Shown here: piece after piece, positions 1,574-35,490 of the stretch
Position numbering within the stretch: position 1 is the first letter of the stretch
How the letters are laid out: every line of letters begins with the position of its first letter
NCBI GenBank assembly: GCA_050737335.1
Contig: JBOHXA010000516.1
Coordinates: forward strand, 1-39,348
DNA: 39,348 nt
Reading direction: 5' to 3'
Source: Limisphaerales bacterium
GTDB lineage: Bacteria; Verrucomicrobiota; Verrucomicrobiia; Limisphaerales; UBA11358
Made by a program: the position numbers and the translations under genes
The notes under the pieces: generated by a model
What the model was told of the DNA's origin: nothing
Database searches by the model: none
Seen by the model: the letters and a program-made list of their open reading frames with translations, nothing else

Positions 1574-2692
1574 TTGGACCTTGTGATAGCTGAAAACGTC
1601 ATCAGCCCGGCGGTATCCATTCCGTTTTCCCGTGAGCGACGCTTTTCGCGCGCGGGCGGCGTGCAATGGACAAATCCAATTGCACATCCCGATTGGGACG
1701 AACAGATCGCCAGGCACAATGAGGGGCTGTCATTTTTTCATACCGCCGCATGGGCGCAAGTGTTGACAGAGACGTACGGATTTGAGCCGGTTTACTTCGT
1801 CAAAGAAGAATCGGGAGCGGTTCAATCCGTGCTACCGTTGATGGAAATCAAGAGCGCCCTGACGGGAGCGCGGGGGGTCGCGTTGCCCTTTACCGACACG
1901 TGCGAGCCTCTCTGCCAGGACAAGGCGGCTTTCCCCGAACTGTTCCGAAACGCAGTTGAATTGGCACAGGCCCGTGGGTGGAAATACCTGGAGTTTCGCG
2001 GCGGTGAATGTTTTTTCAACGGCAGGGCGCCCTCGCTTACCTTTTACCGGCACCGTGTGGAGATACCCCGGGACGAGGAGGCATTTTTTGGGAAATTAAA
2101 AAATGCAGGGCGACGGGCCATTCGGAAGGCCGAAAAGAGCGGGGTCCACGTGGAGATATCGCGAGCTTTCACCTCCGTTAAACAGTATTACGTGCTGCAC
2201 TGTAAATCGCGACGACGGCACGGGTTGCCGCCACAGCCATTTTATTTCTTCAAAAATATCCAACGGCACATTTTATCAAAGGGCCTTGGCTTCGTAGCGC
2301 TGGCGCGCTGGCGCGATGTCCCGGTGGCGGGGGCGATATTTTTTCACTCAGGAGACAAGGGGATTTATAAGTTTGGAGCGTCGGACGAGGCCTTTCAACA
2401 TGTGCGGGCCAATAATCTGTTGTTCCGGGAAGCGATTGGCTGGTTTTCGAGGAACGGGATCAAAGAATTGGATTTAGGGCGGACATCCCTGGCGAACGAG
2501 GGCTTACGCCGTTTTAAGCTGGGTTGGAATGCCCGGGAAGAGATTACGGGCTATTTTCGATTTTGTCCGTGGCAAAAAAGGTTTGTTCCCATGCGGGAGG
2601 AGGGTTACGGCTGGCACAACTTGGTGTTCAAGACGTTGCCGCTGGCGGCGTCGAGGCTGGCCGGCGAAATACTGTACCGGCACTGGGCCTGA
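1574..2692 (+). CDS. FemAB-related GNAT-fold protein (PEP-CTERM-system-associated FemAB-like family type)
   Basis: 372 aa. HTAAWAQVL, RRAIRKAEKSGVHVE, IYKFGASD and LGRTS..GLRRFKLGW match the FemAB/Acetyltransf_6 pattern. The start is uncertain: TTG at 1574 (1 nt after the upstream stop) or GTG at 1583. There is no nearby in-frame ATG. Confidence 0.7.
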   Translation: MDLVIAENVISPAVSIPFSRERRFSRAGGVQWTNPIAHPDWDEQIARHNEGLSFFHTAAWAQVLTETYGFEPVYFVKEESGAVQSVLPLMEIKSALTGARGVALPFTDTCEPLCQDKAAFPELFRNAVELAQARGWKYLEFRGGECFFNGRAPSLTFYRHRVEIPRDEEAFFGKLKNAGRRAIRKAEKSGVHVEISRAFTSVKQYYVLHCKSRRRHGLPPQPFYFFKNIQRHILSKGLGFVALARWRDVPVAGAIFFHSGDKGIYKFGASDEAFQHVRANNLLFREAIGWFSRNGIKELDLGRTSLANEGLRRFKLGWNAREEITGYFRFCPWQKRFVPMREEGYGWHNLVFKTLPLAASRLAGEILYRHWA

Positions 2693-2761
2693 CCGCGGAA
2701 GATACCGGCATTTAATGAGGCGACAGGGAAAAGCTTAGCAAATAGAAACACAGGAGCACAA

Positions 2762-9940: not shown

Positions 9941-11623
9941 ATGAAAACCAGCGTTAATGCCGTTCTAAGCGGGATGATCCTGGCAACGGTTCTGACTTCG
10001 GGGGCTCGCAGCGACGCCAAGGTCATAACCGCCGCGAGTTGCGCCTTTGCCGATGTGAACAATGCTGTTGCGCAGGCGTCCGCCGGAGATGTGGTGCAAT
10101 TGCCGCCCGGGACGAATTGGTGGAGTCAGACTTTGAATTTGTACGGTGTTTCGCTGGTGGGATCGGGTACCAATTCGACCGTACTGATTGATGAAGAGAA
10201 CCGGTCCGTCAGCGCGCAAATGATCAATCTTCATGCCGAAGCGGGACATTTCACTGAAATCTGCGACATTCAGTTTGAGGGCGGGGTGACCAACACCAGT
10301 ATCAATTACTATGGCGCCATCGCGGTTTATGGCTCCAGCGGCTCATCCTGGCGAATTGACCATAATGCTTTCAACCTGTTATACGCCAAGAATATTTGCA
10401 CTGAGGGAAATTCATGGAGCTGTATTGATAACAATACGTTTTACGAGAGAACAATCTCCGTGGAGGATAATAGCTACCTGGCCGTGGACCCTGCGAATCT
10501 TTCGATTGCGGACACCGAAGGGGATGGCTCGTGGGCATCGCCGCCCACGTATGGCCTTAATAGCACGAATGTCCTTTATGTGGAAAACAATTATTTCACA
10601 AATGAAACGGCTTACGTTGCGAGCGTGGGAGCCTGTGACGGGGAAGGCGGGGCGCGGATCGTGTTTCGCCACAATACGGTCATGAATGACATGTTCAACA
10701 ATCATGGCACCGAAACCGGAGGACGCAATCGCAGTGAACGCAGTTTTGAGATTTACGACAACACGTTCATCTGTTCCCCGTCGGCGGCTTTTTATCCACT
10801 TTTTTCCGCAGCCATGATTCGCGGGGGCTCAGGCGTCATCTTCAGCAATACGCTTAGCGGGTACACTTCACTGGCGACGCTTCGCAACTACCGCTATAAT
10901 TACGCGTATTGCGGGACATGGTATCCATTCTGCGGGGCCAACGGGACGAACTCGTGGGATTCAAACAGTCCAACAATCTATTTGACCGGAACCAGCGCGG
11001 GGCCAAACGGAGCGAATTATCTTCAGGTTTCCGGGGCAAATTGGACTCCGAACCAGTGGGTTGGTTATACCGTGATGGATATGAGCAACCAGGAATTTTC
11101 AGTGGTGGTCAGCAATAACGTCAACACGATCTATTACATGGGCGGGGCCGGGAGCACACCGAGCATTGTCCCAGCGGTTGCAACCTTCAACAATGGCGAT
11201 CCCTTTCGGATTTGCCTGGTGTACGCGGCGTTGGATCAACCCGGACGCGGGTCGGGGGATTTACTGGTGGATGACGGCCAGAATCCTGTCACTGGAAATT
11301 TGATAACGATAGATACCGTGACCGGCCTTTCGGCGTGGCCGCGGGAAGTGTTGGAACCGATCTATACCTGGGGCAATACCTCGAATGGCGGGCCGATAGA
11401 ACTCACCAGTGATTACCCGACGCTCCAGTTGAATCGCGATTTTTATAATGAAACTCCGAAGCCTGGTTACACGCCGTACCCTTATCCCAGCCCGCTGGAG
11501 TCCGAAACGTTCGCCACCAATGGCATAACCGGCGGCGGCGGAGGCTCGACGAACGGGCCGCCCTCAACGAATGGGCCGGGGCCGCTTCCACCGACGCATA
11601 TTCACCAGATAAATAATCCGTAA
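9941..11623 (+). CDS. Secreted right-handed parallel beta-helix protein (pectate-lyase-fold; candidate polysaccharide lyase/hydrolase/epimerase)
   Basis: Signal-peptide-like N terminus (MKTSVNAVLSGMILATVLTSGARSDA). Recurring N-rich turn motifs (IDHNAF, IDNNTF, VENNYF, RHNTV, YDNTF) are typical of PbH1 repeats. The tail is Gly/Pro-rich (GGGGGSTNGPPSTNGPGPLPP). The enzymatic activity is not determinable by eye. Confidence 0.55.
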   Translation: MKTSVNAVLSGMILATVLTSGARSDAKVITAASCAFADVNNAVAQASAGDVVQLPPGTNWWSQTLNLYGVSLVGSGTNSTVLIDEENRSVSAQMINLHAEAGHFTEICDIQFEGGVTNTSINYYGAIAVYGSSGSSWRIDHNAFNLLYAKNICTEGNSWSCIDNNTFYERTISVEDNSYLAVDPANLSIADTEGDGSWASPPTYGLNSTNVLYVENNYFTNETAYVASVGACDGEGGARIVFRHNTVMNDMFNNHGTETGGRNRSERSFEIYDNTFICSPSAAFYPLFSAAMIRGGSGVIFSNTLSGYTSLATLRNYRYNYAYCGTWYPFCGANGTNSWDSNSPTIYLTGTSAGPNGANYLQVSGANWTPNQWVGYTVMDMSNQEFSVVVSNNVNTIYYMGGAGSTPSIVPAVATFNNGDPFRICLVYAALDQPGRGSGDLLVDDGQNPVTGNLITIDTVTGLSAWPREVLEPIYTWGNTSNGGPIELTSDYPTLQLNRDFYNETPKPGYTPYPYPSPLESETFATNGITGGGGGSTNGPPSTNGPGPLPPTHIHQINNP

Positions 11624-13354: not shown

Positions 13355-14218
13355 ATGACAAAACCGTCATATAGAATTGGCCTGGCAACGGACTTTAATT
13401 CGAGCAACCTCGCCGCGCTGCTCCGAAGGAGCCGTGATGCCGAGGTCCATTGCGTAGAGACGCCGTACGGCCAATTGACCCGGTTGCTGTCGGAACCGAA
13501 CGATCCTTTCTGGAAAGAGGCGGGCGAGGCCGTATTGCTCTGGAGCTTGCCCCAACTGGCGATTCCGACATTCCAAAAGGTTATCCGGTTCGAGGAATTT
13601 TCCGTGGACGAACTGCTGGAGCAGGTGAAATCATTTTGCGGACAGATTGAAAAAATCCCCGCGGAAGTGTCAACGCTGCTTTTGCCTTCCTGGATAATGC
13701 CGTGGGCGTCACGGGGACTGGGACCATTGGATTTGAGCAGCGTGAGTGGCGTGGCGAATGTGCTGGGCCGGATGAACCAAAGACTTGTTGAACATTTTCG
13801 GAGCCAAACACGGATCGTGCTGCTTGATGCTACTCGCTGGCTTGGTTCCTTGCGCCGGCGCGAGGCGTGCCCTGAGCAAATCGAAGAAATCAGGACCGGA
13901 ATCAAACCGGCTGAGTGGGTCAAAGCGCCTGATGGCATCTCATTGCTTCTGGAACTGAAATCAGGCCAAAGCCAAACCATCAGAACGATCTTCCGGGACA
14001 CGATGGAAAACGGCGCCGCGTCGGAGAATACTTTTGCCGGGGCGGGGGTCATTCATTGGGTGAAAGCGACATTGCGCCGTTATTTTTGCGAAATTCGGGA
14101 CAATTATGTCATGGGCAAAAGATTTTCAGAAGACCGCGACCGAGGCACCGGCCTTCCAGGCAGCGGTCTTCCCGGCGGCAACTTTCCCGGCAGCGGTCTT
14201 CCGGCAAGCGCACGATAA
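13355..14218 (+). CDS. Hypothetical protein; N-terminal ~170 aa resembles the N-terminal domain of FkbH-like/HAD-IIIC proteins, with no HAD domain present
   Basis: YRIGLATDFNSSNLAALL...YGQLTRLL..PNDPFW...AVLLWSL matches the pattern (K/R)IxLLSNFT...GxxQ...D.V.L.L seen at the start of FkbH-like proteins. I saw no DLDNTLW-type motif in any frame downstream. The C-terminal half has no recognisable motif but keeps purine-first codon periodicity. The tail is a G/P/S repeat. ATG at 13355 chosen (the track TTG at 13340 overlaps the upstream stop). Confidence 0.5.
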   Translation: MTKPSYRIGLATDFNSSNLAALLRRSRDAEVHCVETPYGQLTRLLSEPNDPFWKEAGEAVLLWSLPQLAIPTFQKVIRFEEFSVDELLEQVKSFCGQIEKIPAEVSTLLLPSWIMPWASRGLGPLDLSSVSGVANVLGRMNQRLVEHFRSQTRIVLLDATRWLGSLRRREACPEQIEEIRTGIKPAEWVKAPDGISLLLELKSGQSQTIRTIFRDTMENGAASENTFAGAGVIHWVKATLRRYFCEIRDNYVMGKRFSEDRDRGTGLPGSGLPGGNFPGSGLPASAR

Positions 14219-14298
14219 AACCTCTTTTCGGTCAAGCGATCATTTCTTCAAATTTCGGCAAACAGACAAACGTTTCAGAATTCTCACAATTCTCACTT

Positions 14299-15567
14299 AT
14301 GCGCACATTGGCTCACTCAACCGCCGTACAGACGGCTTTGGAGAATTTCTCAGCCTGGCTGGGAGATTTTGGCGAAGTCTCCTATGATCATCAATCGTTT
14401 TTTGCCGGGCCAGTGGGGCGGGCGGCAAAATCATTTTATTACCGACACAAAACGGTGGGAGCAGCCGTAGTGGCGCCGATGGTCTTTTGCGAGGCATTTT
14501 TTCCCGCGGCCCGCCAATGGTTTCATCATCCGATGCGGCTGCCGATCGCCGATGCTCATTATGCGATGGGTTTTGCCTGGCTCTTTGAGGCGACCGGCAA
14601 CGAGTTTTATCTTCAAAAGGCGATGCATTTTCTGGAAGTCCTGCGAAAGACCCGCTGCCCGGCATTCAAGGAATTTAGCTGGGGCTACCCTTTTGATTGG
14701 ATGACGCAGGCAGGGCCCATTCGAGCGGGCACACCGTTGATTACCACCACACCGTACGTTTTTGAGGCGTTCATGCAGGTCGAACAATTGCGTCCGCACT
14801 TGAAATGGCGCCGCATTCTCGAATCCATCGCGCGGCATATCCGGTCAGACTATAAAGACTTCAAGGTTTCCGACAAGGCTATGAGCTGTTCCTACACGCC
14901 GTACGGGAAGGTGGGAGTGGTGAATGCTTCGGCATATAGAGCATTTGCGCTCACCAGCGCGGCCAAATTCTTTAATGACGACCGTTTTCTTGAAGCGAGC
15001 CTGCCAAACTTTAATTTCGTGCTGGAATCTCAAAACCCGGACGGTTCCTGGCCATACGCCATGGATGGCAAACGCGGGTTCGTGGATCACTTTCACACCT
15101 GCTTTGTCATGAAGTCTCTCGCAAAAATTTACCTGCTTACAGGAAACGAGGATTGCATGAAAGCCCTCGACCGTGGGGTCGAGTTTTATACGCAGAATCT
15201 TTTTTCAGAGGACGGGATGCCCAGGCCGTTTGCAAAAGCTCCGCGCCTGACGGTGTATCAGCACGAATTATATGACTGCGCCGAATGCATCAATCTATGC
15301 CTCCTGTTAAGAAAATACTTTCCACAACTCGAAAAAACTTTGGAAGGGGTCACAGCCGGGATTTTGAACCACTGGGTCAAAGCCGATGGTTCATTTCGTT
15401 CCCGGCAACTGATGTTTGGCTGGGACAACGTGCCGATGCACCGTTGGGGACAATCGCAAATGTTCCGGAGTCTGGCGCTTTACTTGTACGAAGCGCAGGC
15501 GACGGACTCCCAAGTTTATGAAAACCTCAATTCCAAATTCTATGTGCGGGATCTGCGGGCAGCTTAA
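14299..15567 (+). CDS. Uncharacterised protein with alpha/alpha-toroid (prenyltransferase/terpenoid-cyclase-like repeat) features
   Basis: ESQNPDGSWPY, VDHFHTCFVMKSLAKIYLLTG and NASAYRAFALTSAAKFF resemble (alpha/alpha)6-barrel repeat motifs. ATG at 14299 chosen, because the 81 aa upstream in the track ORF are R/S-rich junk. The 3' end overlaps asnB by 26 nt. Confidence 0.5.
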   Translation: MRTLAHSTAVQTALENFSAWLGDFGEVSYDHQSFFAGPVGRAAKSFYYRHKTVGAAVVAPMVFCEAFFPAARQWFHHPMRLPIADAHYAMGFAWLFEATGNEFYLQKAMHFLEVLRKTRCPAFKEFSWGYPFDWMTQAGPIRAGTPLITTTPYVFEAFMQVEQLRPHLKWRRILESIARHIRSDYKDFKVSDKAMSCSYTPYGKVGVVNASAYRAFALTSAAKFFNDDRFLEASLPNFNFVLESQNPDGSWPYAMDGKRGFVDHFHTCFVMKSLAKIYLLTGNEDCMKALDRGVEFYTQNLFSEDGMPRPFAKAPRLTVYQHELYDCAECINLCLLLRKYFPQLEKTLEGVTAGILNHWVKADGSFRSRQLMFGWDNVPMHRWGQSQMFRSLALYLYEAQATDSQVYENLNSKFYVRDLRAA

Positions 15568-17446
15568 TTTTGAAAGGACCGAGCCGGTGAATCCTGAAAC
15601 GATTCACCGAATGTCGCGCTCGATGCTCCACCGCGGGCCTGACGACGAAGGCGATTTTATTTCCGGGCCGATCGGCCTGGGCTTCCGGCGCCTGTCCATT
15701 ATTGATCTGGCTGGCGGCCGCCAACCGATGTCGGACGCAGAAGGCACCGTGCAGGTGGTGTTTAACGGAGAAATTTACAACTTTCGCGAGTTGCGCCGGG
15801 ACCTGGAATCCCGCGGGCATAAATTCCGAACCCGTTCTGACACCGAAGTGATCGTCCACGGTTATAAGCAATGGGGCACGGGGGTATTTAACCGGTTGAA
15901 CGGGATGTTTGGGGTTGCCATTTGGGACGCGAGGGACCGGCGGCTGGTTTTGGCGCGCGACGCCATGGGGATCAAACTGATTTATTACACGGTCGAAAAT
16001 GGCCAATTAACCTTTGGCTCCGAGATCCGCCCCGTCCTGGCGGCCCGAACTTCGAAGCCCGAAATTTCGCCCGCGGCGGCGGCCCTTTTCCTGCGCTTTC
16101 GCTATACGCCCTCGCCGCAGACGATTTTCAAAGGGATAAAAAAGCTGGCCGCGGGCACGATGCTAATCGTTGAAGGCGGTGTTTGCCGGGAACAGCGTTG
16201 GTATGATTTCAGCCCGTCTCCTTTTCCCGAGACCATGAAAGATTCGGAAGCGGCGGAGGAGCTGTTGGACCTGTATCGTCGGTCAGTCCGCCGCCACCTG
16301 TGCGCCGATGTGCCAGTGGGGATTCTCCTGAGTGGCGGCCTGGATTCGGCATTGCTGCTGGCACTGATGAACGAGCACGGACGTCATTGGCCGGCATACA
16401 CGGCCGGTTATGGGAAGGGATTCGCGGATGACGAACTGCAAACGGCGGCGCTTTCGGCATTACGGATGGGAGCGCGACACGTAGCGGTGAAATTGGACCA
16501 GAATGAATTCGAGAGATCGCTTCCGAAGATTGTGGAATTACTTGAGGAACCCGTCGCCAGTTCGTCCATTGTGCCGATGTATCATGTTTGCAAGCGCGCA
16601 AGGGAGGACGTAAAAGTAGCGTTGATCGGACAAGGCCCGGACGAACTTTTTGGCGGGTATAACCGGCACCTGGGCGTCCATTATGGAAACTTGTGGCGGC
16701 GAATGCCGCGACCCTTGCGGTCGCGAGTGAGTTCAGCGATATTACGCCTGCCACGAAACGAGACTTTAAAGCGCGGCGTCCAATCGCTCTCGGTCGAAGA
16801 CCGGGTGGCCCGGTACGAAAGTATTTTCTCGTTGCATCCGGCTCAAATGGTCAAGGACCTTTTTCGCCCTGAATTTTCTCTAAATGGCGACAGCGAGTTA
16901 TCCCACTATCTTGAACCCATTGTGCCGCAAATGGAACGGACCGATGAGTTGGGCGGCTTTCAACTGATGGAGATTCGTTCGTCGCTGCCCGATGAGTTGC
17001 TGATGTACGCGGATAAGCTCTCGATGGCGCACAGCCTGGAGGCGCGAGTTCCCTACCTGGACCGTCCTGTGGTTGAATTCGTTCAACGGCTTGGCGCCAA
17101 TCAAAAAATCCGTTACGGCATCCGCAAATGGCTGCACCGGCGCATCTGTTTCAAAATGCTTCCCCGCTCGATTCTGTTTCGCAAGAAACGTGGCTTTGCG
17201 GTCAACGTGGTGGACGACTGGTTCGACACGCGTCGAGACGGTATGTTTTCGCAAATGCTGCTGGACCAGGACTCGCTCATCTATGAACAATTGAGGCCTG
17301 AGCCTGTGCGCGCGCTTCTGGACCAGCATCGTGCCCGCCGCCAGGACAATCACAAACTGCTGTTCAGCCTGGTGATGTTCGAACAATGGCTGCGATGCAT
17401 CCGCTCGCAACAAAACAATAACTTCGCCGGGGCGCTTGCCGCTTAA
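15542..17446 (+). CDS. asnB: Asparagine synthase (glutamine-hydrolysing) family amidotransferase, canonical
   Basis: Begins MCGICG (N-terminal nucleophile Cys). Also has HRGPDD, RRLSIIDL, NGEIYN, SDTEV and the PP-loop SGGLDSALLLAL. The start must be this Met because Cys2 has to become the N terminus. Confidence 0.9.
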   Translation: MCGICGQLNFERTEPVNPETIHRMSRSMLHRGPDDEGDFISGPIGLGFRRLSIIDLAGGRQPMSDAEGTVQVVFNGEIYNFRELRRDLESRGHKFRTRSDTEVIVHGYKQWGTGVFNRLNGMFGVAIWDARDRRLVLARDAMGIKLIYYTVENGQLTFGSEIRPVLAARTSKPEISPAAAALFLRFRYTPSPQTIFKGIKKLAAGTMLIVEGGVCREQRWYDFSPSPFPETMKDSEAAEELLDLYRRSVRRHLCADVPVGILLSGGLDSALLLALMNEHGRHWPAYTAGYGKGFADDELQTAALSALRMGARHVAVKLDQNEFERSLPKIVELLEEPVASSSIVPMYHVCKRAREDVKVALIGQGPDELFGGYNRHLGVHYGNLWRRMPRPLRSRVSSAILRLPRNETLKRGVQSLSVEDRVARYESIFSLHPAQMVKDLFRPEFSLNGDSELSHYLEPIVPQMERTDELGGFQLMEIRSSLPDELLMYADKLSMAHSLEARVPYLDRPVVEFVQRLGANQKIRYGIRKWLHRRICFKMLPRSILFRKKRGFAVNVVDDWFDTRRDGMFSQMLLDQDSLIYEQLRPEPVRALLDQHRARRQDNHKLLFSLVMFEQWLRCIRSQQNNNFAGALAA

Positions 17447-17450
17447 TTCC

Positions 17451-18446
17451 ATGTCTGCTAATTCCATCTCATTGCCCAATGGCCTTGCCGAAATCCGCGT
17501 TAAGGGTAAAACCACCCTCGTCCCGTCGGTAACCATCGAGGGGCGAACCGTCATTGTCACGGGCAAGTGGCTCAAGCTGGCGTCTATTCGTGACGAAATT
17601 GTTGTGGAGGGAGAATTGGTGAAAGATCCGGTCTTATTTACCGGGAAATTGAGAAACAGCGAACTGAAGGCCGATGTTTTTACATTTTTTCAAAGACCGC
17701 CCGATGTCTCGCCCAGGTTCAACTTTCATTTCGAATGGAACAATTACGCCGCGATTCCCATCGCCACATTCGAAAAATGGTGGGAATCCGTGCCGCAGGA
17801 AACCCGAAAAAATGTCAGGCGCGCCGCCAAACGCGGAGTCGTTGTCAAACTTGCTCCATTCGACGACCAACTGGCGCGGGGCATTCATAAGCTGTGCAAC
17901 GAGACGCCGGTCCGCCAGGGCAAGCCATTTTGGCACTTTGGAAAGGATTTTGAGACGGTCAAACGTGAACACGCGACCTATTTGGAACGGAGCGACTTCA
18001 TTGCCGCATACGTCAAGGACGAACTCATTGGATTTATCAAAATGGTTCATGTGGACCGCGTCGCTTTCATTCTTCACATATTGGCGGCGAACGCGCACTA
18101 CGACAAACGACCCATTAACGCGCTCATTGCCAAGGCTGTGGAAATGTGCGCGCTTAAAGGAGTTGGATATTTTGTGTATGACCAATATACCTACGGCAAG
18201 AAGACGCGCAGTTCCCTGGTCGAGCTCAAACGGCGAAATGGTTTCGAGCCGGTCAGCTTTCCACGCTACTACGTGCCATTGACGTGGAAAGGCAAAATCA
18301 TCGTCGCACTGCGCCTGTACCGGGGGGCCGTGGGGCTTTTGCCGGCGCCGCTATTAAAGATCGCCATCGCCGCCCGGGACCGGGTGTACGAAAAAAAGGC
18401 GAGGTCCATATTGCCCAACTCCGGATGTGACCCACAGAACAAGTGA
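17451..18446 (+). CDS. GNAT-fold protein of FemAB/Acetyltransf_6-like type (second copy in the locus)
   Basis: WWESVPQETRKNVRRAAKRGVVVK parallels RRAIRKAEKSGVHVE of 1574-2692. FIAAYVKDELIGFIKMV and LIAKAVEMCALKGVGYFVYD fit a GNAT core. The ATG is 5 nt after the asnB stop. Confidence 0.6.
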   Translation: MSANSISLPNGLAEIRVKGKTTLVPSVTIEGRTVIVTGKWLKLASIRDEIVVEGELVKDPVLFTGKLRNSELKADVFTFFQRPPDVSPRFNFHFEWNNYAAIPIATFEKWWESVPQETRKNVRRAAKRGVVVKLAPFDDQLARGIHKLCNETPVRQGKPFWHFGKDFETVKREHATYLERSDFIAAYVKDELIGFIKMVHVDRVAFILHILAANAHYDKRPINALIAKAVEMCALKGVGYFVYDQYTYGKKTRSSLVELKRRNGFEPVSFPRYYVPLTWKGKIIVALRLYRGAVGLLPAPLLKIAIAARDRVYEKKARSILPNSGCDPQNK

Positions 18447-18459: not shown

Positions 18460-18535
18460 GCCGGTGTAGCTCAACGTCAGAGCGGCTGATCTGTAATCAG
18501 CAGGTTGGAGCGTTCAATTCCTCCCGCCGGCTCCA
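18460..18535 (+). tRNA. tRNA-Thr(UGU)-like gene with non-canonical D loop, anticodon loop and T stem; CCA encoded
   Basis: Hand-folded cloverleaf. Acceptor GCCGGTG/CGCCGGC; D stem GCTC/GAGC with loop AACGTCA; anticodon stem GCTGA/TCAGC with loop TCTGTAA (TGT at 18492-18494). Variable loop AGGTT; T loop TTCAATT closed by G-C; T stem GGAG(C)G/CCTCC; discriminator T; CCA. Most of the sequence is cross-checked against the antisense track ORF 18477-18677. Confidence 0.7.
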
Positions 18536-18563: not shown

Positions 18564-20360
18564 ATGCCTGGAATTGCTGGAATCATTTCTCACGATGCCG
18601 CGGCCGGTCGCCGCGCCAGCGCGGGACAAATGGTGGCGAGTATGCTGACCGAAAAATTTTATAAATCGGCTACGCAATGCGTGCCCGAATTGGGAGTATC
18701 GGCCGGTTGCGTATGGCTGGAAGGTTCGAACGATGGGATTTTTTCAGACGAAAGCAGCGCTATTCTGCTGGTTTTCCATGGGGAATGCTTTATCGATTCT
18801 GAATTGGCAACGGGCGATACAATCATCCGTCTCTATAAAGCGGAAGGCCTGCAATTTCCAAAAAGACTCAATGGCCTTTTTTGCGGTCTGCTCATTGACA
18901 GGGCCGCTGGCGATATAATCCTGTTCAATGATCGCTACGGCATGCAACGGATTTATATTCATTCGGAAAACGGACAGGTTTATTTCGCAAGCGAGGCCAA
19001 GGCGTTGCTTCGGGTCCTGCCGGGATTACGACAGTTTAATCTGGGCGGCCTGACGGATTTTTTGACATTCGGCTGCATCCTGAATTGGAAAACGCTGTTT
19101 CGGGGAATTGAGATCATGCCTGGGGGCTCGGTCTGGACTTTCGGAAACGGCAAAGCGCGTAAAGAAAGTTATTTTTCGGCCCAAACGTGGGAATCGCAAC
19201 CGCCATTGCCGCCGGCGGAATTTCAGGATCGTTTCCAAGAAATCTTCAAACATATTTTGCCGCGCTATTTCAAATGTCAACCGAGTCAATCGCGAGTGGG
19301 GATTGCGCTGACCGGCGGCCTGGATACGCGGATGATCATGGCCTGCCGACCGCGAAACAACGGTCATAGCACCTGCTACACCTTTACCGGCAACAATGGC
19401 CGGACTCTGGATGACAAAATCGCCGCCCGTGTCGCGGCTGCTTCGAATTTTGAGCACAGCCTGTTGCGCCTGGATGACGGTTTCTTTTCAAACTTCAGAT
19501 ATCACGCGGACATGACCGTGTATGCCACCGACGGTTGCGCGGGCATTTTTAACGCTCATGAGCTCTATCTCAACCGCAAGGCCAGGGACGTTGCGCCGGT
19601 GCGTCTGACTGGAAATTTTGGCAGCGAAATTTTGCGCGGTGTTTCGACGTTTAAGCCGCTTCCCCTGGCGCCCGAGCTTTTGAATGAAGATTGGAGACCG
19701 CGCGTCAACGCTTGCAAAGCATCATGGTCCCACGAGAGCGCAAATCCCGTTACGTTTGCCGCATTCAAGGAAGTCCCCTGGCACTTATACGGCAACCTCG
19801 CGGCGGGCCGCTCTCAATTGATATTCCGCAGCCCCTATCTGGACAATGATCTGGTTGCGCTGGCATTTCAATCGCCCGAGCAGTGCCGGGGGTCCTCCCT
19901 GCCCTGCCTCAATCTGGTCCGCGCCAATGATACGAGTTTGAGCGAAATTCCGACGGACCAGGGTTTCGCGGGGCGGAATTCGGGCTTGGGATTTGTCACG
20001 CGGCGGGCCTTTGCCGGCGTGACGTGCAAACTCGATTATTACACCACCGCCGGGCTACCCGGGCCGCTGTCGCCATTCAATTCGATTTTCAAGCCGGTCG
20101 CCGAAAAATTGAAAATTGCGGGCATGCACAAATTTTTGCGCTACAGCAGCTGGTTCCGGGGTGAACTGGCGCCATATGTTCGGGATGTTCTGGCCGCCCC
20201 AAGCGTTCGCGGCACTGGCATTTGGAACCCCGAATTTATTGACCGGATGGCGTCAGATCACATGAGTGGGCGGCGTGATTATTCCGCCGAAATTAACGTT
20301 GTGATGACAATCGAAGCAATCGAACGATTGTTTTTTCGCGATCGGTTGCCAGGGGCCTGA
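18564..20360 (+). CDS. Asparagine-synthase-family protein lacking the glutaminase nucleophile (MPGIAG instead of MCGICG); PP-loop domain retained
   Basis: The N terminus is MPGIAGII. HRGPD, RLxIxD and NGEIYN are absent or replaced (HGECFI). LNGLFCGLLIDR and YFASEAKALL keep the Ntn fold. The PP-loop variant is LTGGLDTRMIMA. Confidence 0.8.
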   Translation: MPGIAGIISHDAAAGRRASAGQMVASMLTEKFYKSATQCVPELGVSAGCVWLEGSNDGIFSDESSAILLVFHGECFIDSELATGDTIIRLYKAEGLQFPKRLNGLFCGLLIDRAAGDIILFNDRYGMQRIYIHSENGQVYFASEAKALLRVLPGLRQFNLGGLTDFLTFGCILNWKTLFRGIEIMPGGSVWTFGNGKARKESYFSAQTWESQPPLPPAEFQDRFQEIFKHILPRYFKCQPSQSRVGIALTGGLDTRMIMACRPRNNGHSTCYTFTGNNGRTLDDKIAARVAAASNFEHSLLRLDDGFFSNFRYHADMTVYATDGCAGIFNAHELYLNRKARDVAPVRLTGNFGSEILRGVSTFKPLPLAPELLNEDWRPRVNACKASWSHESANPVTFAAFKEVPWHLYGNLAAGRSQLIFRSPYLDNDLVALAFQSPEQCRGSSLPCLNLVRANDTSLSEIPTDQGFAGRNSGLGFVTRRAFAGVTCKLDYYTTAGLPGPLSPFNSIFKPVAEKLKIAGMHKFLRYSSWFRGELAPYVRDVLAAPSVRGTGIWNPEFIDRMASDHMSGRRDYSAEINVVMTIEAIERLFFRDRLPGA

Positions 20361-29055: not shown

Positions 29056-30369
29056 ATGAAATTCAAAACAACGACGGCTTTCCCGCCCCTTAAAAGGTAT
29101 TTCCTGCCGCCGCTCCTGGGTTTTTTTATTCTGAGCGCGAGAGCCAGGGGACAACAGGAAACGGTTCAGCCGCTTGCTCCGCCGGTCGAGTCCACCTCGC
29201 AACTAGCCATGACCAACAGCTTCCAATTGTTTCCAATCCACGCAGTCCCTGCGCCGCCGCAACCCTATGAACCTTTTCAATGGGACCGGTTCATTGTGCG
29301 CCCGCACATGGATTACCAATTCACCAAGGCTTACCATCTCCTTGCCGCGCCGAGCAACCAGGTAGATACAACGATCCAAAGGGTTTCTCCGGGTTTATTA
29401 TTTGATCTCGGCCCGCATTGGGCACTGGACTATACCCTTTCCCTTGCCTGGTATTCCAACACCAATTTCGGCACAGAGGTTGACCATTCTATCACCTTAA
29501 CGGGCCAAACAGTGTATGGGGACTGGAACCTGGGATTTTTACAATCTGTCCTTTTGACCCGCTCCCCGCTCATTGAATTCGGCGGTCAAACCTACCAGGA
29601 CTATTTTAACACTTCGGTCACGGGCCACCATGAGGATAATCAATATGTCTCCGAGGACCTTGACCTTAACCAAAACATTCAGATTTTTCCCGGCGGCGGT
29701 TTCGAAGACATGAGCTCCTGGTCCACGGTGGACTGGTTAAATTATCAGCCACAGTCCCATTTCAATATCGGCATAAGCCCCGGCCTGGGGTATAATGACG
29801 CCGTTTACGGTCCCGACTCCGCGTTCGAGCAGGCCCAGACACGGGTGAATTGGCGACTGACGGACATCCTAAGCGTCCAATTGTCCGCCGGCGTTGTTGA
29901 AACCGAATTTCTTGGCAGCGAAGGCAACGGCAATTTGTTCAGCCCCATTTACAGCGGCACCCTTGATTTTAAACCGTTTTCTCAAACCGAAATCTCTGTT
30001 TTTGCAAGCCGTTATTCGTCACCCTCGATGCTGGTGGATGAATACGCCGAGGGATCAACCGTCGGATGCTCGATCGGTCAGCGGTTACTTGGACAATTCT
30101 ACGTTGGCGCCCAGGCCTCTTACAGCGACCAAAAGTATATTGGCACCGCTATCGCCGTCATCCCGATTAGTCCGACGGTGGACGTGATTGAACGCCTCAA
30201 CGAAGGTCGCCAGGACAAATATTACACTTTTTCCGCCCGCCTGGGCCATTCGTTCCTCCAACGTGGCAATATTTCCGTCTTTTACCAATACAGCGGCGAC
30301 AGTTCCTCGGTAAGTGGATACAGCTTTGCCGGCAACCAATTTGGCGGAGAAGTCAGTTATAGCTTTTGA
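29056..30369 (+). CDS. Outer-membrane beta-barrel protein (PEP-CTERM-locus associated porin-like)
   Basis: Signal-like N terminus. Alternating hydrophobic/polar strands rich in Y/G/S/N/Q. The C terminus GGEVSYSF ends in Phe, as in OMP beta-signals. Confidence 0.65.
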   Translation: MKFKTTTAFPPLKRYFLPPLLGFFILSARARGQQETVQPLAPPVESTSQLAMTNSFQLFPIHAVPAPPQPYEPFQWDRFIVRPHMDYQFTKAYHLLAAPSNQVDTTIQRVSPGLLFDLGPHWALDYTLSLAWYSNTNFGTEVDHSITLTGQTVYGDWNLGFLQSVLLTRSPLIEFGGQTYQDYFNTSVTGHHEDNQYVSEDLDLNQNIQIFPGGGFEDMSSWSTVDWLNYQPQSHFNIGISPGLGYNDAVYGPDSAFEQAQTRVNWRLTDILSVQLSAGVVETEFLGSEGNGNLFSPIYSGTLDFKPFSQTEISVFASRYSSPSMLVDEYAEGSTVGCSIGQRLLGQFYVGAQASYSDQKYIGTAIAVIPISPTVDVIERLNEGRQDKYYTFSARLGHSFLQRGNISVFYQYSGDSSSVSGYSFAGNQFGGEVSYSF

Positions 30370-30376
30370 AAAATCC

Positions 30377-31333
30377 ATGTCGGTCAAAGAGATCAAGTTG
30401 GAGTCAGAAAAGAGCAGCCTCGTTTTGAAAGCTGAGCGCTCTTGCGAGAGGATTAATAAATCGCGGCTAAGTTTCTTTTTTCTGGCCGCGGCCCTGCTCA
30501 CGCTCGTATTTTCCGGGCCGCTCTATCATCTGCTGCAACTGGCGACCCGCGATGATTTATATACGGATATACCGTTGGTGCCAATGCTGACTTTGTACCT
30601 CATCTGGCTGCGCCGCCAAAGGATGCCCCGTTCTTTTCGACCCGCGAGCCTTCCGGGTGCGTTGCTTTCCCTGGCCGGCCTGTTGCTACTGGCAGTGTGG
30701 TGGATTGCTTCCCATCAAACTTCACAGGCGTTGGAAAATGATCTGGCCGCAAATATTCTTGCGTTCCTGCTGTTGTTGACTGGCATTTGCTTCGTTTTCC
30801 TTGGTAAAGCCTTTATGCGCGTGTATGCCTGTCCAATAGCGCTGCTGGCTTTCACCATTCCATTTCCCACGGTTTTGCGCCAGTGGATCGAGACACTATT
30901 GCAGCACGGTTCGGCCACATTTGCCACTCTATTCTTTCACATTGCAGGCGCTCCAGTCACACGCGAGGGACTGAATTTCCGATTGTCGGACATGGTCATA
31001 CAAGTGGCGCCCGAGTGCAGCGGCATCCATTCGACAGTCGTATTGGTTATCGTCAGCATCGTGGGCGGCTGGCTGTTTCTGCGTTCCAAGTGGAAGCGGA
31101 CAACACTGGTGCTGGCCGCAATACTTCTGGGGTTTATTCGAAACGGGTTCAGGATCTTCGTCATCGCCGAGCTTTGCATGTCCGACGGCCCGCAAATGAT
31201 TAACTCCCCAATCCATCGGCACGGTGGGCCGCTCTTCTTTGCCTTGTCACTGATCCCCTTCTTTTTCCTGTTGCTTTATCTCCGAAAGACAGAGGGACCA
31301 AACCGTGAACCGTCAACCAGACAATCGTTATGA
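30377..31333 (+). CDS. Exosortase (EpsH/XrtA-like transpeptidase)
   Basis: Polytopic membrane protein with the three exosortase signature regions: VAPECSGIHS (Cys), IRNGFRIF (Arg) and IHRHGGPLFF (His). ATGA overlap with prsT. Subtype not assignable by eye. Confidence 0.85.
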   Translation: MSVKEIKLESEKSSLVLKAERSCERINKSRLSFFFLAAALLTLVFSGPLYHLLQLATRDDLYTDIPLVPMLTLYLIWLRRQRMPRSFRPASLPGALLSLAGLLLLAVWWIASHQTSQALENDLAANILAFLLLLTGICFVFLGKAFMRVYACPIALLAFTIPFPTVLRQWIETLLQHGSATFATLFFHIAGAPVTREGLNFRLSDMVIQVAPECSGIHSTVVLVIVSIVGGWLFLRSKWKRTTLVLAAILLGFIRNGFRIFVIAELCMSDGPQMINSPIHRHGGPLFFALSLIPFFFLLLYLRKTEGPNREPSTRQSL

Positions 31334-34300
31334 AAAAGCACCAAATTTTTCCAGTTCTCGTCGCCGCTTGCCTTGGCGGTCTCGCCCTCGCGGGATGCTC
31401 GCAACGGGCAAAAACCCATTACAGTCTTCAACGCGCCAATGCCATGTTTGAGTCCGGACAATTTGACCGGGCCGAAAGCGAATACCTCAACGTTTTGCGG
31501 GCCGATCCCCGGAACGCTCAAGCCATTGGCCGCCTGGGCCTTATCTATTATAATGAGGGCCGCTTCCAAAAGGCGGCGCCGTACCTTTACAAAGGAAGCG
31601 AAATGTCATCCAGCAATCTCGAACTGCGGGTCAAGCTGGGCATTATCTGCCTTGCAATCGGAGACCGCAAGGAGGCCCATGACCAGGCCGCATTTGTCCT
31701 CAAAAACAACCCGGCCAACAGCGAGGCGCCGGTGCTGTTGGCGCAATCGGCCGCGCAGGGTCAATTCGCCAGCCTGAAACAACAATTCAATGGCCTCATC
31801 GCCCAGGGTGACAGCGCCCCATTGGAAACGGCATTGGGCATTTTGGCGTCCCGGCAGGACCATGTGAAGGACGCGTTAGAGAAATTCCAGCGCGCGCTCA
31901 ACCTCAAATCGCAATTTGCACCAGCCTACGACGCCCTTGCCAACACTTATTTGCAGATCCACCAGGTGAAAAAGGCGGCGGATGCGTTCAAGGCCGCGTC
32001 CGAATGCGCGTCCATAACCTCCCCATTGCAAACGGAGTACGGCCAGTTCGAAATTCAAACCGGCAATTCCAGAGTCGCCGAAGGATTTTTCAATGCTCTC
32101 ACGCAAAAAGTTCCCGATTATATGCCCGCCTGGCTTGGCCTGGCCGAAGTCGCGCTCGATGAAAGGAAATTTGACGATTCGGCAGCGGCATTGAAAAGAG
32201 TCCTCGACAGTGATCCGCAAAATGCGGATGCCTTGGTGCTTAAAGCAAGACTTGAGCTGGCGCAGGGCCACACGGACGATGCCATCGCTGAACTGGAACA
32301 TCTCGTCAAAACCTTTCCCAGGGCGCCCCACATGCACTATCAACTGGCTCTTGCCTATATTATGGGAGAAAAAACAGACAAGGCTATTAACCAATTGCAT
32401 GAAACCCTTGACCTGAACCCTGATTTTGCCCAGCCGGCTATCCTCCTCGCCCAACTTGACGTTCAAAGAGGGGACGTGGAATCGGCCCTCGCTTTACTTA
32501 AGCCATTAGTTGCGCGCCACCCCGATATGATTGACGCCAAACTGCTGCTGGCAGACGTTTATCGGCTTCAAAAGGATTTCAATGACGCGCTCGCCATTTA
32601 TCAGCAGCTCGAAAGAACATATCCCAAAGATCCGAAGATCCCGCTCCTGGCCGGTTCCGCCTGCGTTCAGCAATTGAAAGAGGACGCGGCCCGCGTCCAA
32701 TTTAACCGCGCTTTGCAAGTGGATCCGGGGAATGTCAGCGCCCAGGAGGAATTAGCGCAATTGGACATGGTTGACAAAAATTTCGATGCGGCGGAGCAAC
32801 GGGTACAAAACCTGATTGCGAAAAATCCGGGCCAGGCGCCGTTGCAGATTCTTTTGGCGAAGATTTTTCTCGACCGCGGCCAGACCAATCGGGCTGAAGA
32901 GGCCTTGTCAAAAGCCGCCACCCTTCCCGACGGGCTGCAGGCAAATTTTATCCTCGCACAGCTATATTTTAATGTCAAACAGGACAAAGACGCCCTCGAC
33001 ACCCTTAACGTCGCCATCACAAAGGAACCGCGCAATCCCTCGCTGCTCATGTTAGCCGCGGAGATTCAAAGTGACCAAAGGGATTACGTCAACGCCGCGG
33101 CCACTTATGAGAAATTGCTCGCAGTGAGTCCGCAGTATAGCCCGGCGCTCAACAATCTTGCGTGGCTCTATTCGGACCATCTTGGCGACCTGGCCAAGGC
33201 CTACGCTCTGGCCCAACGGGCCCGGCAACTGCTTCCGAACGATCCTTCGACCGCCGATACCCTCGGATGGATTCTCTTTAAACGTGGCGACTATACGTCC
33301 GCTCTAAGTCTGTTTCAACAAAGCGCCGGCGGGTTGCCGGGCAATCCCGAAGTGCAGTTTCATCTTGGTCTCACATATTACATGCTGGACAACGAGGATT
33401 CCGCGCGCCAGCAGCTTCAAAATGCGCTTTCGCTCACAGCCCCGTTCGCCGACCGAATTGGATGCCAGAAGTATTTGAACATTCTCAATATTGACCCGAC
33501 AGGCGCGGATAGCGCGGCCCGTGAAATCCTCGAAAAGCAATTTTCCGAACAGCCGGCGGACCCAATTGCCTTTAGCCGCCTCGAGGCGATTTATCGGCGC
33601 GACAACAACGCAGCCAAAGCGGCTGAACTGTGCCACACTGCCCTGAAGGCAAATCCGAAGAATGCCAAAGCCATGGTCCTTCTCGCGCAACTGTGTGAAA
33701 CCCAGGACCGTCAGAAAGCATTGGAATTGGCAAAATCCGCGTATCAACTCTCGCCCAACGATGCCGACGTTTGCTCCACGCTGGGGCGCCTGGCGTTTCT
33801 TACGGGTGACGATCAGTGGGCGTTTACCCTTCTTGACGAAGCGTCCCAAGACCAGCCCACAAATGGGCAAACGCTTTTTGATCTGGCAAATGCCGCCTTC
33901 TGCCTCGGAAAAGTGTCCGAAGCGCAAACTGACATGCAAAACGCGATGCAATCGGGGCTTTCCCGGGTTCAGGCCGTTCGAGCCAAAAATTTCCTGGACA
34001 TGATCACAATGGGCAAAAATCCCCGGCAAGCTGGCGCAAGCCATGCAGATATCCAAAGTATCGTGGCTTCCGAGCCGGACGATGCTGCCGCGCTGTATGC
34101 GCAGGCCGTGGCCGATAGTGAAAACAATGATGCCGCGGGCGCAGAAGGCGCCTACGAAAAATTACTCGCGCGCCATCCAAATTGTTCCATCGCCTGCAAG
34201 AATCTCGCTATTCTGTATGCGCAAACCCTGGCGGATCCCGCCAAGGCCTATCCGGTGGCCCTGAAGGCTCGAGAGGCATTCCCTGATGATCCCCGGGTCG

Positions 34301-34539
34301 CGCGCGCTCTGGCAATGGTTCTCTTCCGCAAAGGTGATTATGACGGCGCCGCGAACCTGTTCAACAGCGTTTCCAATTCTCCAGGAGCGGATGCCCGGCT
34401 GTTTTATTGCCTGGGAATTTGCGAGTACCATTTGAAAAATTTTCTTGAGACCAAAACGTCGCTCGAGCGGGCATTGAATTTGAACCTTTCAGGCCAGGAA
34501 GCCGCCGATGCGCGCCAAACCCTGTCGGAGTTGCATTGA
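31330..34539 (+). CDS. prsT: PEP-CTERM-system TPR-repeat lipoprotein (PrsT-like)
   Basis: Lipobox LALAGC after MKKHQIFPVLVAACLGG, then about 1000 aa of TPR-like repeats (recurrent A..Y...L..dP.n..A...LA). Confidence 0.8.
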   Translation: MKKHQIFPVLVAACLGGLALAGCSQRAKTHYSLQRANAMFESGQFDRAESEYLNVLRADPRNAQAIGRLGLIYYNEGRFQKAAPYLYKGSEMSSSNLELRVKLGIICLAIGDRKEAHDQAAFVLKNNPANSEAPVLLAQSAAQGQFASLKQQFNGLIAQGDSAPLETALGILASRQDHVKDALEKFQRALNLKSQFAPAYDALANTYLQIHQVKKAADAFKAASECASITSPLQTEYGQFEIQTGNSRVAEGFFNALTQKVPDYMPAWLGLAEVALDERKFDDSAAALKRVLDSDPQNADALVLKARLELAQGHTDDAIAELEHLVKTFPRAPHMHYQLALAYIMGEKTDKAINQLHETLDLNPDFAQPAILLAQLDVQRGDVESALALLKPLVARHPDMIDAKLLLADVYRLQKDFNDALAIYQQLERTYPKDPKIPLLAGSACVQQLKEDAARVQFNRALQVDPGNVSAQEELAQLDMVDKNFDAAEQRVQNLIAKNPGQAPLQILLAKIFLDRGQTNRAEEALSKAATLPDGLQANFILAQLYFNVKQDKDALDTLNVAITKEPRNPSLLMLAAEIQSDQRDYVNAAATYEKLLAVSPQYSPALNNLAWLYSDHLGDLAKAYALAQRARQLLPNDPSTADTLGWILFKRGDYTSALSLFQQSAGGLPGNPEVQFHLGLTYYMLDNEDSARQQLQNALSLTAPFADRIGCQKYLNILNIDPTGADSAAREILEKQFSEQPADPIAFSRLEAIYRRDNNAAKAAELCHTALKANPKNAKAMVLLAQLCETQDRQKALELAKSAYQLSPNDADVCSTLGRLAFLTGDDQWAFTLLDEASQDQPTNGQTLFDLANAAFCLGKVSEAQTDMQNAMQSGLSRVQAVRAKNFLDMITMGKNPRQAGASHADIQSIVASEPDDAAALYAQAVADSENNDAAGAEGAYEKLLARHPNCSIACKNLAILYAQTLADPAKAYPVALKAREAFPDDPRVARALAMVLFRKGDYDGAANLFNSVSNSPGADARLFYCLGICEYHLKNFLETKTSLERALNLNLSGQEAADARQTLSELH

Positions 34540-35402: not shown

Positions 35403-35423
35403 GCGAACCGACATCGGTAACGG

Positions 35424-35466: not shown

Positions 35467-35490
35467 CCCGGCCCCACATTCCCCCCACGC

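Follow-up and report, generated by a model that had tools for sequence, protein, structure and literature searches.

A noncanonical tRNA-Thr gene coupled to a predicted aminoacyl-tRNA-dependent transferase gene in a verrucomicrobial exopolysaccharide locus

A tRNA gene embedded in an exosortase/exopolysaccharide locus

Contig JBOHXA010000516.1 (assembly GCA_050737335.1), from a metagenome-assembled genome (MAG) of a Limisphaerales bacterium in the phylum Verrucomicrobiota, contains a noncanonical tRNA-Thr(UGU) gene lodged between two protein-coding genes. The window, meaning the whole stretch of DNA that was analyzed, is this entire 39,348-nt contig. It forms a single long plus-strand gene array, an exosortase/exopolysaccharide (EPS) locus. 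Sugar-modifying genes, including a FemAB-family gene, are followed by a Wzc-like chain-length regulator, many glycosyltransferases, a Wzy-like polymerase, and an AsnB-type amidotransferase. The array continues with an unannotated gene, referred to here as X, then the tRNA gene, an AsnB-like gene, and a Wzm/Wzt exporter. Genes for an XrtC-like exosortase, PrsT, a VPDSG-CTERM protein, and the two-component regulators PrsK and PrsR complete it (Table 1).

General tRNA models do recognize the cloverleaf. ARAGORN calls tRNA-Thr(tgt) at 18460..18535 on the plus strand, its only tRNA call in the window, and Rfam model RF00005 matches 18460..18532 with 52.1 bits (gathering score 29, E = 1.6e-8). The 5' half reads GCCGGTG / TA / GCTC / AACGTCA / GAGC / G / GCTGA / TCTGTAA / TCAGC and the 3' half AGGTT / GGAG-C-G / TTCAATT / C-CTCC / CGCCGGC / T / CCA, with the acceptor stem at 18460-18466 / 18525-18531. 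A ViennaRNA fold of the strand returns the same cloverleaf (-28.3 kcal/mol, z = -2.3), in agreement with the stems folded by hand in a preliminary description of this DNA.

The anticodon TGT (18492-18494) sits in a standard 7-nt loop with A37, preceded by C33 at 18491. An extra, bulged C lies at 18511 between pairs 52-62 and 53-61; in the RF00005 alignment it appears as a 1-nt insertion (c) on the 5' side of the T stem. The T loop carries T54-U55-C56, the discriminator at 18532 is U (U73), and CCA is encoded. Of the canonical elongator Thr features, the window copy lacks U33, the G18-G19 doublet that pairs with U55/C56, and a regular 5-bp T stem, while the positions that threonyl-tRNA synthetase (ThrRS) reads are all present: G1-C72, C2-G71, G4-C69, G5-C68, G35, and U36. 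The gene begins 13 nt past the stop codon of X (18446) and ends 28 nt ahead of the next ATG (18564). Neither promoter-like nor terminator-like sites were found beside it, counts being no higher than in shuffled sequence.

The preliminary description had already reported C33, the extra T-stem C, U73 with encoded CCA, both spacings, and the lack of a promoter or terminator of its own, and all of these stand. Its account of the D loop holds as well. The loop (18473-18479) is indeed 7 nt long with a single G, so that G18 is kept and G19 lost.

The tRNA and gene X are linked across phyla

The association between the tRNA and its upstream neighbor was followed in both directions. In the forward direction, 80 loci from species-representative (GTDB) genomes were fetched via X. 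In the reverse direction, metagenome contigs were searched with nothing but features of the tRNA itself, namely its bulged T arm and 3' acceptor strand, yielding at least 120 loci.

ARAGORN places a same-strand tRNA of this family just downstream of X in 71/80 genome loci, which span Verrucomicrobiota, Acidobacteriota, Rokubacteria, Nitrospirae, and others. The tRNA starts no more than about 60 nt from the X stop, or ahead of that stop, in 63 of the 74 pairs measured. Conversely, X lies directly upstream in 106-107 of the 108 metagenome loci with at least 500 bp of upstream sequence, among the matches listed. Two of these 108 are exceptions, of which one is an overlap artifact, leaving locus L105 as the only one truly without X. 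For the nine ARAGORN-negative genome loci, a family covariance model finds no tRNA either; two of them are cut by contig ends, and four also lack the AsnB-like gene. An AsnB-like gene directly follows the tRNA in most genome loci and in 67 of 86 informative metagenome loci among the matches listed. X-tRNA pairs without an adjacent AsnB-like gene occur in 13 of those 86, as well as in L058 and L064. From these sequence comparisons, the core of the conserved cassette is X, the tRNA, and usually the AsnB-like gene.

The position of the gene at a genomic-island boundary or integration site was also considered and rejected, because the operon runs on in the same orientation to either side of the gene, which occupies an equivalent place in different phyla.

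In 29/74 genome loci (e.g., L069:10978, L030:10949, and L036:4030), the X frame has no stop before the tRNA start. The stop then falls inside the tRNA, for example as the TAG formed by U8-A9-G10, or beyond it; the window, with its 13-nt gap, differs. Excision of the tRNA from such a transcript would leave a non-stop X message, and X translation and tRNA maturation may therefore compete.

Charging determinants are conserved while decoding positions drift

The genome set comprises 74 X-linked tRNAs (67 distinct), and the metagenome set used for counts at individual tRNA positions comprises 102-103 copies among the matches listed. All three departures described for the window copy are real, but as family hallmarks they differ. 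Only the T-stem bulge, an extra unpaired pyrimidine between 52-62 and 53-61, is universal (74/74). GG is missing from the D loop in about 80-88% of copies (65/74 in genomes, 82/103 in metagenomes). C33 is a minority state, found in 15/73 genome copies, with non-U33 in 19/102 metagenome copies, so that C or A occupies this position in about 20% of copies overall. C33 and U33 even toggle among near-identical relatives of the window copy, a sign that C33 there reflects relaxed constraint rather than a hallmark of the family.

Other positions involved in decoding are similarly loose. At position 34, the genome and metagenome copies show U, C, and A but never G; 13/102 metagenome copies have a pyrimidine at position 37, and one family member has an 8-nt anticodon loop. 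The X-linked tRNAs score 42-54 bits against RF00005, 16-28 bits lower than a canonical tRNA-Gly in locus L058 (69.7 bits); the window copy, at 52.1 bits, falls within this range.

The remainder of the molecule is tightly held. The acceptor stem is GCCGGTG/CGCCGGC in 68-69 of the 74 genome copies, U73 is present in 74/74, and CCA is encoded in 63/74. In an alignment of 51 sequences, 99.3% of pair cells are paired and eight pairs show compensatory changes, mostly in the anticodon and T stems, a result matched by 0/500 shuffles. Acceptor pairs 1-72, 2-71, 4-69, 5-68, and 7-66 are invariant in that alignment (51/51), and G35 and U36 persist in 69/73 genome copies and 99/102 metagenome copies (93-97%). 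These frozen acceptor pairs, together with G35 and U36, coincide with the experimentally defined bacterial Thr identity set (PMC9976931, Table 1); that table also lists G34, which is never present here. Because the bacterial Thr identity elements are conserved, charging by ThrRS appears likely. Positions 33, 34, and 37 thus drift while the ThrRS determinants stay.

In five loci (L028:10947-11021, L031:1930-2006, L042:2267-2341, L047:10981-11055, and L058:11266-11339), the Gly anticodon bases C35 and C36 replace the Thr bases G35 and U36. The L042 and L047 tRNAs additionally have G3-C70, which together with U73 completes the bacterial Gly identity set (PMC9976931). The X-linked tRNA of L058 has a 6-nt anticodon loop. 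Tandem duplicates occur in L006:11027-11292, where identical copies lie ~115 nt apart, and in L044:11003-11241, where copies ~90 nt apart differ at one D-loop base. Some MAGs also carry two X-tRNA cassettes with different tRNAs (L002/L022, L001/L025, and L004/L027).

Protein X has the predicted fold of aminoacyl-tRNA transferases

The X open reading frame (ORF) encodes 336 aa from a TTG at 17436; the likely start is the ATG at 17451, giving 331 aa as in NCBI record ACREFR_13800. More than 5220 homologues are known, all labeled 'hypothetical' and none with a Pfam domain. The X superfamily comprises about 1,370 clusters at 50% identity.

A first structure model of X, built from 21 close homologues, reached a mean predicted local confidence (pLDDT) of 58 and was superseded by an AlphaFold2 (AF2) model based on a 56-sequence alignment spanning X and a sister subfamily, X2, which has a pLDDT of 90.1 and a predicted template modeling (pTM) score of 0.84. 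In Foldseek searches of the PDB with this model, the top matches are Sba18 and Sbb17 (E = 1e-10, TM score 0.62-0.63), next comes Weissella FemX (E = 1e-9, TM score 0.54 over ~320 columns), and then MprF, A-PGS, L-PGS, and FemA, the matches having a probability of 1.00. The earlier, poorer model gave an identical ranking. At the sequence level, the X family profile yields only weak GNAT matches among PDB sequences (E = 0.1). In a profile-profile comparison with hhalign, the X profile aligns with the FemAB-like family found in these loci over its C-terminal GNAT domain (E = 2.4e-4, 179 columns).

The hhalign alignment also pairs a conserved basic helix of X (TRKNVRRAAKRGV) with the RRAIRKAEK helix of the Fem-like family. 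This helix spans residues 121-133 and includes R124, K125, R128, R129, K132, and R133, of which R124, R128, and K132 are invariant or nearly so. In FemABX-type transferases, a basic helix binds the tRNA acceptor stem, and the catalytic lysine corresponds to K305 of FemX. As it matches none of the family hidden Markov models, X is best regarded as a separate, new family that shares the tandem-GNAT fold with aminoacyl-tRNA transferases, and not as a demonstrated Fem member. X is accordingly predicted to be an aminoacyl-tRNA-dependent transferase that partners the tRNA.

An AsnB-like partner without the glutaminase cysteine

The AsnB-like protein encoded downstream of the tRNA starts with MPGIAGII, and its N-terminus M-P-G-I-x-G-I is conserved (window 18564-18590; homologues in L001-L200). 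Pro2 replaces the catalytic Cys in 65/66 homologues, and because of this replacement the enzyme cannot hydrolyze glutamine. Removal of the initiator Met would give the protein an N-terminal proline. The PP-loop, TGGLDTR at residues 250-256, is intact and corresponds to the SGGxDS ATP pyrophosphatase motif of AsnB. Its motif LTGGLD[TS]R (L-T-G-G-x-D-[TS]-R) is invariant in 66 homologues, with T250, G252, D254, and R256 unchanged in all of these sequences. The protein should therefore still adenylate a carboxylate, and it is probably an ATP-dependent adenylating amide ligase.

A sister subfamily is followed by Ser-like tRNAs without an anticodon loop

Subfamily X2 was found in L040 as a shorter paralogue that precedes the main X and has its own 93-nt class II tRNA behind it. 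X2 proteins are ~292 aa long, number at least 416, and are unannotated. In 9/9 loci examined, X2 is followed by a 91-98-nt Ser-like class II tRNA with an acceptor stem of GGAGAGG/CCTCTCC, G73, and a long variable arm; CCA is encoded in 8/9. What corresponds to the anticodon arm is a variable hairpin of 7-8 bp with loops such as GCAA, GTCA, T-rich, or similar sequences. The consensus fold contains ten compensatory pairs. These RNAs score under the Rfam thresholds for both tRNA and tRNA-Sec, and ARAGORN sometimes misses them.

Ser identity is independent of the anticodon (PMC9976931), and anticodon-less X2 tRNAs fit this pattern because seryl-tRNA synthetase (SerRS) does not read the anticodon (PMC9976931). 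Judged by sequence, they keep the features that SerRS reads and have dispensed with the anticodon loop. Across both subfamilies, the pattern in which synthetase requirements are kept and the rest decays constitutes the strongest indirect evidence that the X- and X2-linked RNAs would be charged yet non-decoding.

Two further loci carry unusual tRNA genes (coordinates in the orientation of the tRNA). In L101, a FemAB-family ORF (2512-3504) is followed by a tRNA-Asn(GUU)-like gene (3498-3572) with U37 and G73, and the pair sits 1 kb upstream of a normal X-tRNA-AsnB-like cassette. The ORF matches the Fem-like family of these loci with an hhalign probability of 97.6% (E = 2.7e-12), and the two genes may represent a third enzyme-tRNA pairing. 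In L183, ARAGORN reports a 'tRNA-Trp(cca)' at 10032-10106 with a poorly paired anticodon stem and U73; on either side of it lies a GT4 glycosyltransferase gene of the same polysaccharide operon.

A probable dedicated amino-acid carrier and the alternatives

Taken together, comparison of sequences makes it likely that the tRNA is a dedicated amino-acid carrier for X, and that X aminoacylates an exopolysaccharide precursor with Thr. The tRNA would be transcribed within the long exopolysaccharide operon and then cut out of the transcript. Ordinary cellular ThrRS would charge it with threonine, as its conserved identity elements suggest, and X would move the threonyl group from the tRNA to a nucleophile in exopolysaccharide synthesis. 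The most plausible acceptor is an amino sugar in a precursor bound to a nucleotide or a lipid. More speculatively, the AsnB-like enzyme would then probably use ATP to add another amide linkage to this unit, for instance by joining a carboxylate, such as that of a uronic acid, to the free alpha-amine of the newly attached amino acid. Loss of G19, the bulged T stem, and drift at positions 33, 34, and 37 are in keeping with an RNA released from selection for decoding, and the changes in the elbow and T stem may mark the tRNA for X and keep it away from EF-Tu and the ribosome.

The preliminary description had proposed a dedicated tRNA excluded from translation, by analogy with the staphylococcal tRNA-Gly species that supply FemXAB; it did not single out the neighboring ORF, X, as the partner enzyme. 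The dedicated role is strongly supported by comparison: the tRNA is locked to X (71/80 genome loci; 106-107/108 metagenome loci listed), X has a predicted transferase fold, the ThrRS determinants are kept while positions 33, 34, and 37 drift, and the sister Ser-like tRNAs have no anticodon loop. Exclusion from translation and poor EF-Tu binding, the other half of that proposal, are predicted properties.

Several observations weigh against a dedicated carrier serving X. X itself has no match in Pfam (E <= 0.01) or NCBIfam (E <= 1e-5), and the Fem, DUF2156, and GNAT hidden Markov models (PF02388, PF13480, and TIGR03019) do not match it. Neither BLASTP of X against the FemAB-like protein of the window nor phmmer against the PDB gives anything significant, and the hhalign probability for X against the FemAB-like family is just 44%. 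Seven informative genome loci carry X without a tRNA, while in L105 (3997-5335) a family tRNA stands behind a 404-aa ORF that is unlike X and matches nothing in Pfam. Among the five loci with Gly-type tRNAs, the positions of X biased toward tRNA type (F112Y and P120S) provide no clean co-substitution signature. The window tRNA could decode to some extent, given its 7-nt loop, A37, and a score over the gathering threshold. ACA accounts for 18% of the operon's Thr codons and so must be read by some UGU isoacceptor. A canonical tRNA-Thr(UGU) elsewhere in this genome is assumed, with indirect evidence from relatives whose copy of this gene has CGU or AGU and from MAGs with two cassettes. Under the additive T-stem model of EF-Tu binding (PMC3239215, Table 2), the tuning pairs G49-C65, G50-C64, and A51-U63 are ~+0.7 kcal/mol weaker than the reference. 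This effect is mild, so exclusion from EF-Tu would have to come from the bulge or the elbow, which lie outside the additive model. Finally, all steps from charging to product are predictions drawn from comparison.

Further upstream of the L105 tRNA lie genes for a Wzx-like flippase and a glycosyltransferase.

Of the readings weighed here, the least probable is that of an ordinary translational tRNA-Thr(UGU) placed in the operon, perhaps for decoding ACA in the cluster, whose oddities are tolerated lineage variation. It would explain why ARAGORN and Rfam call the gene above threshold and why it retains a 7-nt loop, A37, T54-U55-C56, CCA, and the Thr identity elements, and ACA is indeed a common codon in the operon. 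It does not account for a place between the same two genes that is kept across phyla, for a T-stem bulge that is universal, or for non-U33 and pyrimidine 37 at ~20% and ~13%. The wobble base, which varies among U, C, and A, including A34, and is never G, is equally at odds with it: bacteria normally restrict A34 to tRNA-Arg, and G is the commonest wobble base of Thr anticodons. Gly-identity switches, the presence of two cassettes in some MAGs, and sister tRNAs without an anticodon also speak against ordinary translation. Rare-codon control of the bldA type is unlikely as well, in view of the frequency of ACA in the operon and of a wobble base that differs between relatives.

A tRNA-like RNA element is highly unlikely. 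Such an element would act as RNase P/RNase Z punctuation between the X and AsnB-like messages, or as a sensor or decoy that regulates the operon by binding ThrRS or sensors of uncharged tRNA. The gene lies within the operon transcript and lacks a promoter and terminator of its own, which would suit such a role, as would the 29/74 loci with no X stop before the tRNA, where processing and X translation must interfere. Processing, however, would not call for keeping G35-U36, the four acceptor pairs read by ThrRS, U73, and an encoded CCA (63/74) across phyla. A coherent switch to the Gly set would have no reason, and the transferase fold of X and the SerRS determinants on the X2 tRNA would be left unexplained. 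It is also quite unlikely that the tRNA carries a non-standard unit, with the AsnB-like enzyme loading it with an adenylated acid or N-acylating its bound Thr and X transferring the product. X, the tRNA, and the AsnB-like gene are conserved together, and the AsnB-like protein keeps its adenylation site, its glutaminase Cys having given way to an invariant Pro. Amino-acid transformations on tRNA also have precedents in GatCAB, SelA, and SepCysS (PMC2330236). Against this, the identity sets of three housekeeping synthetases (Thr, Gly, and Ser) are kept, arguing for loading by ordinary aminoacyl-tRNA synthetases, and some X-tRNA pairs have no AsnB-like gene beside them (13/86 metagenome loci among the matches listed, plus L058 and L064). 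Moreover, we know of no AsnB-family enzyme that acts on tRNA.

The dedicated-carrier reading can be extended to the exosortase encoded in the same array, 12 kb downstream of the tRNA in the window. Other loci were taken with 10-kb flanks, which are rarely long enough to reach an exosortase gene at a window-like distance. A link between aminoacyl modification and exosortase-mediated protein anchoring is conceivable. A specific version is unlikely: a single amino acid with a free alpha-amine (Thr, Ser, or Gly) would be placed on the exopolysaccharide via a private non-decoding tRNA, and the amine would then serve exosortase attachment of PEP-CTERM/VPDSG-CTERM proteins or AsnB-like cross-linking to uronic acids. 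If true, the exosortase reading would be a Gram-negative counterpart of the pentaglycine bridge that staphylococcal FemXAB builds with dedicated tRNAGly and that sortase uses, and it would name the long-sought acceptor of exosortases.

Relation to known systems

The closest functional analogues are the non-proteogenic tRNAGly species of Staphylococcus (NP1-3), used by FmhB, FemA, and FemB (PMC7826273; PMC3239215). Both systems involve extra tRNA paralogues, charging by a housekeeping synthetase, Fem-type GNAT users, and a cell-envelope polymer, features that here are predicted. In staphylococci, too, odd D and T arms are read by the transferase and weaken use in translation while a valid anticodon is kept. 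The hallmarks differ, with weak 49-65/51-63 pairs in the staphylococcal tRNAGly and a T-stem bulge plus lost G19 here. The staphylococcal tRNAs are found in one genus, among other tRNA genes, whereas here the tRNA stands directly behind the enzyme gene in several Gram-negative soil phyla. Gly alone is used in staphylococci, whereas identity elements point to Thr (or Ser or Gly) here. The staphylococcal context is peptidoglycan; the gene context here is exopolysaccharide/exosortase.

Structurally, X is closest to Orf11, Sba18, and Sbb17, aminoacyl-tRNA-dependent peptide synthases of streptothricin-type antibiotics (PDB 9wqy, 9wqx, and 9wqw) that are tandem-GNAT proteins comparable to X in size. 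Orf11, a homologue of the best structural match, uses Gly-tRNA to aminoacylate an amino-sugar amine (PMC12945691, citing Maruyama et al. 2016), and this activity provides a precedent for a sugar acceptor of X. Sba18 and Sbb17 share ~14-15% identity with X and belong to actinomycete secondary metabolism. The three enzymes use ordinary cellular tRNAGly, with no tRNA gene reported in the cluster as far as PMC12945691 says. MprF and the aminoacyl-phosphatidylglycerol synthases (DUF2156) are tandem-GNAT aminoacyl-tRNA transferases that modify a cell-envelope component, as is predicted for X, and they strongly match its modeled fold (9goe, 4v35, 4v36, and 5vrv). They differ in having a lipid acceptor, a fusion to a flippase domain, and ordinary Lys- or Ala-tRNA, while X is soluble and stand-alone and has its own tRNA.

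TIGR03019 proteins are also Fem-type and tied by context to exosortase/EPS loci. One copy is present in the window, X aligns at profile level to the C-terminal GNAT domain of this family, and the FemAB-family ORF of L101 that precedes the odd tRNA-Asn-like gene is a member of it. X nevertheless matches neither TIGR03019 nor Pfam FemAB or Acetyltransf_6, which makes it a separate family. No tRNA partner for TIGR03019 proteins is described in the literature searched, and ARAGORN finds no tRNA behind the FemAB-family gene of the window (1574-2692). The Bacillus cereus tRNA-Other (PMC3399842) is likewise a non-translational tRNA-like gene, with cell-wall and antibiotic phenotypes. It differs in being a regulator that flanks a genomic island and has no linkage to a transferase (PMC3399842), while the gene described here lies within a biosynthetic operon.

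Enzyme-tRNA cassettes of this kind were not found in the literature searched, which included a 2026 review of aminoacyl-tRNA enzymes; coverage was incomplete, and this is absence of evidence only. Apparently undescribed are the gene-level enzyme-tRNA cassette, the new transferase family, and the EPS/exosortase context in Gram-negative soil phyla, along with the Thr, Ser, and Gly variants and the anticodon-less Ser type.

Dedicated non-translational tRNAs are textbook knowledge for one genus, Staphylococcus. The present comparison suggests that the principle is widespread in abundant soil phyla such as Verrucomicrobiota and Acidobacteriota. It would add a hard-wired pairing of enzyme and tRNA, at least three amino-acid flavors, and use in exopolysaccharide rather than peptidoglycan. 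The two subfamilies also offer a natural experiment that separates charging from decoding features, as the Thr type keeps G35-U36 and the Ser type has lost its anticodon. Annotation pipelines would miscount such tRNAs as translational isoacceptors and can miss the Ser type entirely. The proposed function predicts polysaccharides decorated with amino acids and may bear on the question of the exosortase acceptor.

Other genes of the locus

Table 1. Positions of the tRNA gene, gene X, and other features of the window, with X2 loci used for comparison
Feature	Position	Strand	Evidence or remark
Noncanonical tRNA-Thr(UGU), encoded CCA	18460..18535	+	ARAGORN; RF00005 52.1 bits; family covariance model R1 92.3 bits; covariation
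Gene X, unannotated tandem-GNAT protein, predicted aminoacyl-tRNA-dependent transferase	17436..18446	+	AF2 fold, Foldseek, hhalign, synteny
AsnB-like protein without catalytic Cys, PP-loop intact	18564..20360	+	Pfam GATase_7 and Asn_synthase; NCBIfam matches all far under cut-off
Glutamine-hydrolyzing AsnB-type amidotransferase	15416..17446	+	TIGR01536 441 bits (above cut-off), TIGR03108 471 bits
FemAB-family (XrtA/PEP-CTERM-associated type) protein	1574..2692	+	TIGR03019 120 bits (cut-off 260); Pfam Acetyltransf_6 and FemAB above gathering score
UDP-GlcNAc 3-dehydrogenase-like gene	50-1051		Adjoins FemAB-family region
LbH acetyltransferase gene (N-acetyltransferase)	1048-1572		Adjoins FemAB-family gene
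XrtC-like exosortase	30314..31333	+	TIGR04151 258 bits; TIGR02602 above cut-off
PrsT (PrsT-like TPR protein)	31330-34539	+	
VPDSG-CTERM sorting-signal protein	34788-35402	+	
PrsK	35365-37614	+	
PrsR-like sigma-54 response-regulator-type activator	37523-38983	+	Last of array
X2 loci	L040:8934-9949; L201:4001-5028; L203:4001-5004; L204:4001-4970; L205:4001-5076; L206-L209		

The FemAB-family gene near the start of the window is a second candidate aminoacyl-tRNA user in the operon. Together with the dehydrogenase-like and LbH N-acetyltransferase genes, it occupies 50-2692 in a layout like that of a 3-amino-sugar pathway. This arrangement hints that another step in the operon may depend on aminoacyl-tRNA, and it offers an amino sugar as a candidate acceptor.

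The amidotransferase gene upstream of X likely starts at an MCGICG motif near position 15542. A true AsnB-type gene lies upstream of X in Verrucomicrobiota-type loci and is kept in L001-L037. Before it in the window is an ORF of ~500 aa (14056-15567, 'unk503') with only a sub-threshold Pec_lyase match and no firm family; its homologues accompany AsnB and X in most Verrucomicrobiota-type loci.

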